Shown: piece by piece, positions 30,979 through 31,800 of the stretch | Layout of the letters: the number at the start of each line of letters is the position of its first letter | Numbering within the stretch: position 1 is the stretch's first letter | Assembly: GCF_053078305.1 (NCBI RefSeq) | Contig: NZ_CP166879.1 | Length of the DNA stretch: 64,000 nt | Direction: 5' to 3' (one strand) | The notes under the pieces: generated by a model | Told to the model about the DNA's origin: nothing | The model's database searches: none | What the model saw: only the letters and a program-made list of their open reading frames with translations | Made by a program: the position numbers and the translations under genes

Positions 30979-31800
30979 ATGATGCACAGGTTAAATCTCA
31001 ATGGCTATGAACCCGACCGACACCATGAAGCCGCGGTCGCATTTTGTATTCACGCCGGAACGGATGAGTTAACCAGTCCTGTACATCAGCACCGCAAAGG
31101 ACAGCTGATACTAGCATTACATGGTGCAATTACCTGTACGGTGGAAAATGCTTTGTGGATGGTGCCGCCGCAATATGCGGTTTGGATACCGGGCAGGGTG
31201 GAACATAGCAATCAAGTGACAGCTAACGCTGAACTCTGTTTTCTGTTTATCGAACCCAGCGCAGTGACAATGCCGACAACATGTTGCACATTGAAAATAT
31301 CGCCCTTATGCCGGGAATTGATTTTAACCCTGGCAAACAGGACGACGACTCAGCGTGCTGAGCCGATGACCCGCAGATTAATTCAGGTCCTGTTTGATGA
31401 ACTCCCTCAGCAGCCACAACAACAGCTGCACCTGCCCGTTTCTTCTCATCCTAAAATCCGCACGATGGTGGAGATGATGGCGAAAGGGCCCGTCGAGTGG
31501 GGGTCATTGGGGCAATGGGCTGGCTTTTTTGCGATGAGTGAACGCAATCTTGCCCGACTGATAGTAAAAGAGACGGGGTTGAGTTTTCGCCAGTGGCGTC
31601 AGCAGTTACAGCTGATTATGGCGCTTCAGGGATTAGTGAAAGGCGATACTGTACAGAAAGTTGCTCATACGCTGGGGTATGATTCAACAACGGCCTTTAT
31701 TACTATGTTTAAGAAAGGCCTGGGGCAAACGCCAGGCCGATATATTGCGGGATTAACTACTGTTTCCCCACAATCAGCGAAACCAGACCCGCGGCAATAA
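30979..31800 (+). CDS. yeaM: AraC-family transcriptional regulator YeaM (NimR)
   Basis: 273-aa ORF, C-terminal AraC-type HTH region; divergent from yeaN. Confidence 0.9.

Follow-up and report, generated by a model that had tools for sequence, protein, structure and literature searches.

The 44-bp tail-to-tail overlap of nimR and yeaL in Escherichia coli: a floating nimR stop codon and a terminator-like hairpin inside the nimR coding sequence

The convergent genes nimR (yeaM) and yeaL of E. coli end within the same DNA, each reading into the last codons of the other. The locus raises the question of whether this overlap is real, how it came about, and what it means for the termination and expression of the two genes. 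It was analyzed in a 64,000-nucleotide stretch of contig NZ_CP166879.1 (RefSeq assembly GCF_053078305.1), hereafter the window; all coordinates are those of the window, and positions in MG1655 were converted as 1906555 minus the MG1655 coordinate.

The ORF list, Pfam and the RefSeq annotation place nimR at 30979..31800 on the + strand (273 codons and a TAA) and yeaL at 31757..32203 on the − strand (148 codons and a TAG). The shared stretch, 31757..31800, was read directly in the sequence and is 44 bp long. On the + strand it holds the last two bases of nimR codon 260, codons 261–273 and the stop; on the − strand it holds the last two bases of yeaL codon 135, codons 136–148 and the stop. In both the ORF list and the raw sequence the nimR TAA lies at 31798–31800 (+) and the yeaL TAG is the reverse complement of CTA at 31757–31759. 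The first-pass annotation had the identities of yeaM and yeaL, both stop positions and the 44-bp overlap exactly right (ORF list, raw sequence, Pfam and RefSeq), and the window sequence holds no alternative stop that would remove the overlap. Its statement that the arrangement forces an antisense overlap of transcripts was also borne out: full-length nimR and yeaL mRNAs are necessarily complementary over at least 44 nt, and convergent overlap is seen in published RNA-seq (PMC12288877). The window holds a second convergent coding overlap, of 4 bp, between mntP and rlmA.

Both reading frames pass as genuine protein-coding genes, with Pfam matches and orthologues in more than 50 species. NimR is matched by HTH_18 (residues 180–255 of 273, 1.5e-18), by HTH_AraC (224–256) and by AraC_binding (22–147, 21.6 bits against a cut-off of 21.1), and thus has the AraC/XylS plan of a C-terminal double helix-turn-helix and an N-terminal cupin-like ligand/dimerization domain; in the AlphaFold2 model the N-terminal half is beta-rich and the C-terminal half helical. 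This AraC-family protein is known to repress nimT (yeaN), which is transcribed divergently from it, and was purified and characterized as a 273-aa protein (PMC5934670). YeaL is a DUF441 inner-membrane protein (residues 7–145 of 148, 2.7e-44). As in any convergent overlapping coding pair, the genes lie on opposite strands and have their 3′ nucleotides in common; the stops were verified and the overlap extends beyond one genome.

The overlap is already known: the standard annotation of E. coli K-12 includes it, and it is of an ordinary convergent (tail-to-tail) kind. In RefSeq strain ES5, whose sequence matches the window at 100% identity, nimR and yeaL lie at equivalent coordinates, and in MG1655 (b1790/b1789) yeaL occupies 1874352..1874798 and nimR 1874755..1875576, again with 44 bp in common. 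The locus was found at ≥80% coverage in 5,406 of 5,426 complete E. coli genomes, a count of locus presence, the overlap annotation itself having been read in the ES5 and MG1655 records. Since the raw sequence, RefSeq (ES5 and MG1655), Pfam and this genome count agree, both stops are real. E. coli has 75 convergent overlapping gene pairs (PMC4161906). The transcript overlap has also been catalogued: yeaL-nimR is among the 165 convergent excludons of MG1655, in the core set detected in at least 50% of 58 RNA-seq samples (PMC12288877). Among NimR protein clusters the 273-aa form has 3,722 + 3,116 members and the 264-aa form 46. The shorter nimR allele, of the type found in strain E69, matched none of the complete RefSeq genomes at >95% identity, and is therefore either rare or from a divergent lineage. 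The 44-bp state is kept in nearly all E. coli, an outcome that low divergence within the species would give equally.

An artefact of annotation or sequencing (a wrong stop, a frameshift or a non-coding ORF) would be a reasonable suspicion for a long overlap, 124 of 178 database convergent overlaps longer than 60 bp having been 3′-end extension artefacts (PMC2478687). Here it is effectively refuted. Both genes have strong matches to curated Pfam families, the stops are identical in the window, ES5 and MG1655, and megablast over about 5,400 further genomes found the locus ≥95% identical in every one except a single genome. Alignments of orthologues from other genera show no frameshift before the stop, and the characterized NimR has the length that the overlap predicts. 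Almost no weight is left for this explanation.

The origin of the overlap was examined in 80–82 related enterobacterial loci. Wherever the yeaL stop could be placed in an orthologous locus, its aligned position is the same, whereas the nimR stop floats from −5 to +45 bp relative to it. The overlap is 17 bp in 29 loci and 44 bp in 15, and values of 20, 21, 6, 0, −1, −4, −5 and 45 bp also occur. The 17-bp overlap (31757..31773, both strands) results from a nimR stop at the equivalent of 31771–31773, as in most other Enterobacteriaceae; together with a 264-aa NimR it was found in 29 of 82 loci, from Klebsiella, Raoultella, Enterobacter, Kluyvera, Leclercia, Lelliottia and others, with NimR of 263 aa in three Leclercia loci. 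Judged from these alignments, 17 bp is probably the ancestral state. Thirteen of the 15 loci with 44 bp belong to the Citrobacter group (11 Citrobacter assemblies and two mislabelled ones, L011 ‘Raoultella’ and L033). The state switches within a genus: C. youngae CCUG 30791 has 44 bp and ATCC 29220 has 17 bp, and E. coli has 44 bp against 17 bp in strain E69. In three loci of the C. amalonaticus group, from two C. amalonaticus strains and one Citrobacter MAG, yeaL Leu143 has changed synonymously from CTG to CTT, which makes a nimR TAA and a 20-bp overlap. Several Escherichia lineages have no nimR at all.

The switch between 17 and 44 bp maps to a single nucleotide, 31771, which is read on both strands. 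With C at this position nimR has CAA (Gln265) and yeaL has GTG (Val145); with T, nimR has a stop and YeaL has Ile145. The association is perfect, since all 15 loci with 44 bp encode YeaL Val145 (GTN) and all 17-bp loci encode Ile145 (ATN). C is carried by E. coli and by the Citrobacter freundii group, in both of which a transition from T to C at 31771 makes the conservative change of YeaL Ile145 to Val and, in the same step, converts the nimR stop to CAA. Reading of nimR then continues for nine codons to a TAA supplied by yeaL Leu135–Ile136, giving the 44-bp overlap. The DNA of the overlap is constrained by yeaL, whose last 14 codons belong to the conserved DUF441 membrane domain, and the nimR frame runs into yeaL antisense as far as the first stop that the yeaL codons by chance provide. 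The usual origin of convergent overlaps is a mutated stop codon with subsequent extension of the 3′ end (PMC2478687).

The extension gained by NimR was delimited by protein alignment as QSAKPDPRQ (residues 265–273), encoded with its TAA at 31771..31800 (+). That TAA is antisense to yeaL codons Leu135 (CTT) and Ile136 (ATT), and is the first stop that nimR meets in frame beyond 31771. Within the extension, bases differ among loci at yeaL wobble positions and nowhere else. Upstream of the overlap, variation among loci is highest at nimR codon position 3 (0.27–0.39). Between 31774 and 31797 it is highest at yeaL position 3, which is nimR position 2 (0.24–0.40), and is zero at nimR position 3; this is the pattern of the region that is yeaL only. 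In the NimR alignment, with lengths from 257 to 273 aa, conservation drops after Tyr255, and AlphaFold2 gave pLDDT values below 50 to residues 261–273 (about 35 in the tail) against a mean of 82.9. Because it lies outside the helix-turn-helix domain, is not conserved and is predicted to be unstructured, the nine-residue tail is most likely a dispensable, neutral passenger.

Selection for the longer tail in E. coli and Citrobacter freundii, through stability, partner binding or autoregulation, would make the 44-bp overlap adaptive. The 273-aa form does occur in essentially all E. coli (see the cluster sizes above) and in 13 Citrobacter-group loci, and Gln265, Ser266, Pro269 and the terminal Gln273 recur in most tails. 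Every constant residue of the tail is, however, encoded by bases that yeaL codon positions 1 and 2 fix, whereas the bases that yeaL leaves free all vary, each with a change of NimR residue (Ala/Met/Thr, Lys/Arg/Thr/Ile, Asp/Val/Gly and Pro/Leu/Arg). Close relatives alternate among NimR lengths of 264, 265 and 273 aa, and the tail lies outside the Pfam domain in the part of the model with the lowest confidence quoted above. An adaptive tail is accordingly regarded as very improbable.

How the two transcripts end was examined on each strand. The first-pass annotation had held that the overlap leaves no room for terminators. This was not supported: on the yeaL strand, the coding sequence of nimR contains a terminator-like hairpin followed by a U tract (31738..31708, −). 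The hairpin, GGCCUGG-CGUUUGCC-CCAGGCC (31717..31738, −), was recovered by terminator scan, fold energy and as inverted repeat I5, and has a 7-bp stem with six G-C pairs and an 8-nt loop (−14.1 kcal/mol, z = −2.9). It falls within nimR codons 247–254 (GLGQTPGR). Directly 3′ of it is the U-rich tract UUUCUUAAA (31708..31716, −), antisense of nimR Phe-Lys-Lys 244–246, which in E. coli has five U in its first 8 nt. The sequence features of an intrinsic terminator are thus found together: a GC-rich stem (about 5–14 bp), a short loop, an adjoining U tract and a position near the stop. The hairpin and U tract are kept in Escherichia, Citrobacter and Salmonella, where the stem begins 18 nt past the yeaL stop (17 nt in two Salmonella loci); in Citrobacter and Salmonella the tract reads UUUUUUGA or UUUUUUAA. 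On these features yeaL probably ends at this hairpin and U tract within nimR, and its mRNA, ended there, would be complementary to nimR over about the final 90 nt of that gene. A tail-to-tail overlap therefore need not preclude intrinsic termination, since the terminator can sit inside the coding sequence of the neighbour. The Klebsiella/Enterobacter group has a weak hairpin or none, so that the hairpin is no universal solution for the nimR-yeaL pair. A bidirectional terminator was considered and rejected: the + strand after the hairpin reads GAUAUAUUGC, which is no U tract, so that the hairpin is unidirectional at most, and the element lies about 60 nt upstream of the nimR stop.

The hairpin might instead be a by-product of the codons for the conserved AraC-family motif GLGQTPGR, or act on the nimR mRNA, through its stability or through ribosome pausing near the 3′ end. 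The codons for G-L-G-x-x-P-G-R are inherently self-complementary in their first two positions, and the + strand version folds better (−16.6 kcal/mol, z = −3.3). The generic terminator scan gave three sites in the region against 3.1 in shuffled sequence, no excess of terminator-like sites, and mapped 3′ ends for yeaL or nimR were absent from the searchable supplements of Adams et al. 2021, TERMITe 2025, TRS 2023 and SMRT-Cappable-seq 2018. Against this, only 2.6% of synonymous recodings of GLGQTPGR fold as stably, and 1.9% do so with a U tail. The four wobble sites of the stem are near-invariant in Escherichia and Citrobacter (0.036; permutation p = 0.0017 from 21 sequences, 18 of them Citrobacter, with statistics that ignore phylogeny), where the three loop wobble sites vary at 0.48–0.62 and other wobble sites at 0.35; the same four stem sites are free to vary (0.43) in the Klebsiella/Enterobacter group, where the encoded peptide is the same. 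The placement 18 nt past the yeaL stop and the adjoining U tract, better still in Citrobacter (UUUUUUGA), also suit a terminator. A role other than termination of yeaL is considered less likely.

For nimR, neither a consensus scan nor a hairpin-plus-U scan of 31798–32480 (+) revealed an intrinsic terminator in the next 680 nt; the best site (−6.6 kcal/mol) lies inside yoaI. Transcripts of nimR probably run antisense into yeaL, and would be stopped by Rho or by collision with opposing polymerases. On the yeaL side, a yeaK-yeaL co-transcript with its transcription start has been reported (33012, −, corresponding to MG1655 1873543 on the forward strand; SMRT-Cappable-seq operon b1787|b1789, PMC6131387), and this transcript would bring RNA polymerase into the overlap. 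A sigma-70 promoter scan of 30500–33200 returned no sites against 3.2 expected, a shortfall that carries no information. The Rfam matches in the same interval (E ≤ 1), JUMPstart (20.9 bits against a threshold of 35) and permuted tmRNA (19.3 against 47), were discarded as sub-threshold chance matches.

The opposed transcripts could form a functional excludon, in which complementary 3′ ends lead to transcriptional interference, to RNase III cleavage or to both, so that high yeaL expression lowers NimR and de-represses the NimT exporter, and the reverse. The pair does belong to the published core set, a tail-to-tail layout with some overlap is kept across many enterobacterial genera, and nimR is without an intrinsic terminator of its own. 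The published list, however, takes read coverage as its only criterion, and in E. coli about 75% of 370 convergent operons have overlapping 3′ ends, with a mean overlap of 286 nt (PMC4161252), so that transcript overlap is not special to yeaL-nimR. The extent of the coding overlap is evolutionarily labile over the −5 to +45 bp given above, nimR is absent from several Escherichia lineages, and YeaL (DUF441) has no known functional link to nitroimidazole efflux. A functional excludon is therefore considered unlikely. Less likely still is a regulatory module made of the overlap and the embedded hairpin, in which yeaK-yeaL polymerases would terminate or collide in the nimR 3′ end, antisense RNA of at least 90 nt would lower NimR, YeaL expression would be coupled to de-repression of the NimT nitroimidazole exporter, and the Ile/Val145 toggle would tune the exposure of the nimR coding sequence. 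The likely explanation is an ordinary convergent overlap with drift of the nimR stop, a tail that is most likely neutral and the yeaL hairpin as a probable embedded terminator.

The value of the locus is modest, as a clean worked example of how convergent overlaps originate and persist. The single base 31771 makes a conservative Ile/Val change in yeaL and a stop/Gln switch in nimR, and the NimR tail appears to evolve as a passenger of yeaL wobble positions. For annotation pipelines, the 44-bp convergent overlap should not be “corrected”.

Several known systems resemble this pair. Excludons (Sesto et al. 2013; ExcludonFinder, PMC12288877) explicitly include yeaL-nimR, listed on RNA-seq coverage criteria, as are the neighbouring pairs yeaK-yoaI, yeaO-yoaF and pdeD-yoaE of the window (PMC12288877). 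The hallmarks of an excludon are mutually exclusive expression and RNase III-dependent processing, whereas yeaL-nimR is known from read coverage. Bidirectional intrinsic terminators or programmed RNA polymerase collisions between convergent genes were reportedly described by Ju et al. in 2019. As in systems of bidirectional terminators and polymerase collisions (Wang et al. 2022 preprint, 10.1101/2022.10.23.513370), a GC-rich stem-loop stands at the convergent boundary, with one A-rich flank that is the U tract on the yeaL strand; unlike bidirectional terminators, the yeaL hairpin is not intergenic but sits within the coding sequence of nimR, about 60 nt short of its stop. In dnaQ-rnh and ilvA-ilvY (references 19 and 20 in PMC4161252) convergent transcripts likewise overlap and end within or beyond the partner gene; those pairs were studied experimentally, whereas yeaL-nimR is known from genome-wide data.

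The closest likeness is to convergent overlapping gene pairs (Rogozin et al. 2002; Palleja et al. 2008, PMC2478687; Huvet & Stumpf 2014, PMC4161906), in which two real genes on opposite strands have common 3′ ends. As in these pairs, the nimR-yeaL overlap arose when a point mutation removed a stop codon and reading ran on to the following stop in frame. With 44 bp it exceeds the few bases that are common for convergent overlaps and is shorter than the 60-bp class regarded as suspect by Palleja et al., and nothing essential differs; unlike in generic convergent pairs, the mutational toggle can here be named to the base (31771).

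Six-frame ORF listing of the window placed nimR (yeaM) at 30979..31800 on the plus strand (273 aa) and yeaL at 31757..32203 on the minus strand (148 aa), with a common stretch of 44 bp, read on both strands, at 31757..31800. The stops were read from the raw sequence as TAA at 31798-31800 (+) for nimR and as TAG on the minus strand (CTA at 31757-31759) for yeaL; the extent of the overlap and both stop positions were as described in the first-pass annotation. The window is E. coli chromosome and, over the locus, is 100% identical to E. coli ES5, for which RefSeq lists both genes at coordinates matching the window ORFs. 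In MG1655, where the orientation is reversed, the RefSeq genes (yeaL, 1874352..1874798; nimR, 1874755..1875576) also overlap by 44 bp. At a coverage of at least 80%, the locus was present in 5,406 of 5,426 complete E. coli genomes. An annotation artefact was excluded by strong Pfam matches, the identical stops in ES5 and MG1655, the genome-wide presence and the orthologue alignment. The overlap is already annotated and catalogued, and is an ordinary convergent overlap of the standard E. coli annotation.

The nimR product matched Pfam AraC_binding (residues 22-147) and HTH_18 (residues 180-255, E = 1.5e-18), as expected of the AraC-type regulator that it had been called from the sequence. NimR is a characterised 273-aa, single-target regulator of the AraC family, which acts at the nimR/nimT (yeaM/yeaN) intergenic region and controls 2-nitroimidazole resistance (PMC5934670). 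In a 292-aa E. coli variant of NimR (P0001), a 19-residue stretch inside the cupin-like N-terminal domain is duplicated in tandem. For yeaL, the shared 44 bp correspond to its final 14 codons, which fall inside the region matched by Pfam DUF441 (residues 7-145 of 148, E = 2.7e-44). On the nimR side they hold the two last bases of codon 260 and codons 261-273, beyond the helix-turn-helix domain, which ends at residue 255-256. In an alignment with 24 orthologues (257 to 273 aa), NimR conservation ended at Tyr255, after which tail sequence and length varied. An AlphaFold2 model built on this alignment (mean pLDDT 82.9, pTM 0.74) gave pLDDT values below 50 for residues 261-273. Because of the Pfam limits, the decay of the alignment and the low pLDDT, the overlap joins a conserved part of yeaL to a non-domain NimR tail without confident structure.

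For comparison, 80 loci encoding close YeaL relatives (one genome per species) were examined for the stop codons of yeaL and of its convergent nimR orthologue. In the alignment, the yeaL stop stayed in place wherever it was located, and the nimR stop floated. An overlap of 17 bp, with a NimR of 264 aa (263 in three Leclercia loci), was found in 29 loci. These include E. coli strain E69 and C. youngae ATCC 29220; the rest belong to Klebsiella, Raoultella, Enterobacter, Kluyvera, Leclercia, Lelliottia, Pluralibacter and others. The 44-bp state was shared by E. coli and 13 Citrobacter-group loci, of which 11 were Citrobacter assemblies and two were mislabelled (L011 'Raoultella' and L033). Overlaps of 20 bp (two C. 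amalonaticus strains and a Citrobacter MAG, the C. amalonaticus group), 21 and 0 bp (two Salmonella subspecies), 6 bp (Trabulsiella), -1 (Cedecea), -5 (Buttiauxella) and 45 (Yokenella) completed the series. As the 17-bp state is common to all Klebsiella/Enterobacter-type genera, it would be the most parsimonious ancestor.

The yeaL gene lacked an adjacent nimR in Kosakonia, Phytobacter, E. albertii, E. whittamii and others. Among loci L003 and L005-L008, nimR was missing beside yeaL in E. albertii, E. whittamii, Escherichia sp. E1V33 and 'E. coli' SCPM-O-B-8794, and Escherichia sp. MOD1-EC7003 retained only a remnant of about 48 codons abutting the yeaL stop. Members of the genus can thus do without the nimR-nimT module. 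The nimR gene of E69 (CP089930.1, 3431..4225, minus strand; 264 aa, TGA stop, 17-bp overlap) is a divergent allele (88.6% amino-acid identity) next to a yeaL that is 98% identical. No complete RefSeq E. coli genome carried this type at more than 95% nucleotide identity and only six did at 90-95%; the allele may stem from recombination or a divergent lineage.

Where the overlap is 17 bp, nimR ends with TAA or TGA at the equivalent of 31771-31773, which in E. coli reads CAA (Gln265). Base 31771 is also position 1 of yeaL codon 145 on the opposite strand, which encodes Val (GTN) in 15/15 44-bp loci and Ile (ATN) in all 17-bp loci. Since this base belongs to both codons and the association is strict, a single transition makes both a conservative YeaL Ile/Val change and a nimR stop/Gln switch. 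Without a stop at 31771, the next one in frame is TAA at 31798-31800, the antisense of yeaL codons Leu135 (CTT) and Ile136 (ATT); loss of the stop at the toggle base lets the nimR frame run on to this TAA, giving the 44-bp overlap. Close relatives differ in state (C. youngae CCUG 30791, 44 bp, versus ATCC 29220, 17 bp; E. coli versus strain E69). In the C. amalonaticus group, a yeaL-synonymous change of Leu143 from CTG to CTT creates a nimR TAA one codon later, hence 20 bp.

In the overlap, nimR codon positions 1, 2 and 3 lie opposite yeaL positions 1, 3 and 2. Variation peaked at nimR position 3 in nimR-only sequence (31660-31756; minor-allele fraction 0.27-0.39) and at yeaL position 3 in yeaL-only sequence (31801-31899; 0.32-0.35). 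In the nine-codon extension (31774-31797) the peak was at yeaL position 3, that is nimR position 2 (0.24-0.40), with zero variation at nimR position 3. Because variation follows yeaL wobble and not nimR, the extension evolves like plain yeaL sequence, with no sign of nimR constraint. Each yeaL-synonymous change there alters a NimR tail residue (tails include QSMRPGLPL). A selected function for the nine-residue tail is contradicted by this wobble-driven variation and by the switches of state within genera, and we consider it highly unlikely. Given the yeaL-driven variation, the domain limits and the low pLDDT, the tail is best read as a probable neutral passenger.

A consensus terminator scan placed a terminator-like hairpin on the yeaL strand (-) at 31738..31717, GGCCUGG-CGUUUGCC-CCAGGCC followed by UUUCUUAAAC, although the scan by itself was not significant (3 sites vs 3.1 expected). 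The hairpin starts 18 nt past the yeaL stop, within nimR codons 247-254 (GLGQTPGR), and folds at -14.1 kcal/mol (41-nt context; z = -2.9 vs shuffles). Nearly all nimR-carrying loci of Escherichia, Citrobacter and Salmonella kept it at 18 nt from the yeaL stop (17 nt in the two Salmonella loci), with UUUUUUGA or UUUUUUAA after it; in the Klebsiella/Enterobacter group it was weak or absent. Among 21 Escherichia and Citrobacter sequences, the stem-pairing nimR wobble sites (31719, 31722, 31734 and 31737) had a mean minor-allele fraction of 0.036, against 0.351 for the other 48 wobble positions (permutation p = 0.0017), and the three loop wobble positions were highly variable (0.48-0.62). In the Klebsiella/Enterobacter group, with the peptide unchanged, the four stem sites varied freely (0.43). 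When the 14-residue peptide of the region was recoded synonymously (n = 20,000, local codon usage), 2.6% of the recodings were as stable, and 1.9% were as stable with the U-rich tail retained.

The hairpin conservation, the invariance of the stem wobble sites and the rarity of equally stable recodings argue, with moderate confidence, for a candidate intrinsic terminator of yeaL inside nimR in the Escherichia/Citrobacter/Salmonella clade. There is some chance, if a minor one, that the hairpin is a codon by-product or acts on nimR mRNA; consistent with this, the published 3'-end data sets searched showed no mapped 3' end for yeaL/nimR. Use of the candidate yeaL terminator would make the yeaL mRNA complementary to about the final 90 nt of nimR coding sequence. 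A bidirectional terminator was ruled out, since GAUAUAUUGC comes after the hairpin on the nimR strand and the hairpin lies ahead of the nimR stop. A second inverted repeat at 31692..31720 (GGCCTTTATTA / TAAGAAAGGCC, 11 nt, 91% complementary) shares bases with the U tract and 3' arm of the hairpin and is present in the minimum-energy fold of 120 nt of context; it might give longer read-through RNA of the yeaL strand an alternative fold. Terminator and hairpin/U scans of the 680 nt beyond nimR turned up no intrinsic terminator for this gene. Its transcripts may end by Rho acting on untranslated antisense RNA or, alternatively, by head-on polymerase collision, a mechanism put forward for convergent pairs (preprint 10.1101/2022.10.23.513370).

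The first-pass annotation had stated that the overlap forces antisense transcript overlap and leaves no room for terminators. Its interpretation was half right: the conserved candidate inside nimR speaks against the latter, and complementary transcripts are borne out by ExcludonFinder (NAR 2025), in which yeaL-nimR is one of 165 convergent transcript overlaps seen in half or more of 58 MG1655 RNA-seq samples (PMC12288877). A regulatory excludon, with mutually antagonistic yeaL and nimR expression, draws its support from this coverage-based listing; a conserved function is made less likely by the lability of the overlap across loci and by the fact that several Escherichia lineages have lost nimR, and the excludon appears improbable. 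Overlap of 3' ends, with a mean length of 286 nt, was reported for 276/370 convergent operons (Conway et al.; PMC4161252), so that transcript overlap is the rule for convergent pairs and not a peculiarity forced by the coding overlap.

The same listing has yeaK-yoaI, yeaO-yoaF and pdeD-yoaE, all within the window (PMC12288877). At 32373..32981, yoaI (+, small membrane protein) and yeaK (-, aminoacyl-tRNA deacylase) converge with stops that abut at 0 nt (32475-32477 and 32478-32480; CTAG|TTA). A yeaK-yeaL transcript starting at 1873543 (window 33012, minus strand) was reported by SMRT-Cappable-seq (PMC6131387) and must run antisense over the entire yoaI. Convergent mntP/rlmA overlap by 4 bp (74..77), and pdeD/yoaE lie 3 nt apart (junction about 6301..6303). 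Elsewhere, topB (DNA topoisomerase III, 59588..61550) is a frameshifted pseudogene in the annotation of ES5, which is window-identical at the nimR-yeaL locus. The longest dgcJ ORF (33024..34694, minus strand) has 556 aa from GTG and the RefSeq product 496 aa (1,491 nt), a difference of 60 codons in start choice.

The 11 convergent pairs of the 64-kb window have gaps of 116, 92, 50, 0, -44, 21, 58, 53, 119, 3 and -4 bp, and yeaL/nimR is the extreme of this continuum. The comparison of relatives adds the one-base Ile/Val and stop/Gln toggle, the passenger tail and the candidate embedded terminator; the evolutionary explanation and the candidate terminator will not surprise a specialist. E. coli has 75 convergent overlapping gene pairs (Huvet and Stumpf; PMC4161906), long true overlaps are tolerated in convergent orientation only, and the standard origin of convergent overlaps is a stop-codon mutation with 3' extension (Palleja et al.; PMC2478687).
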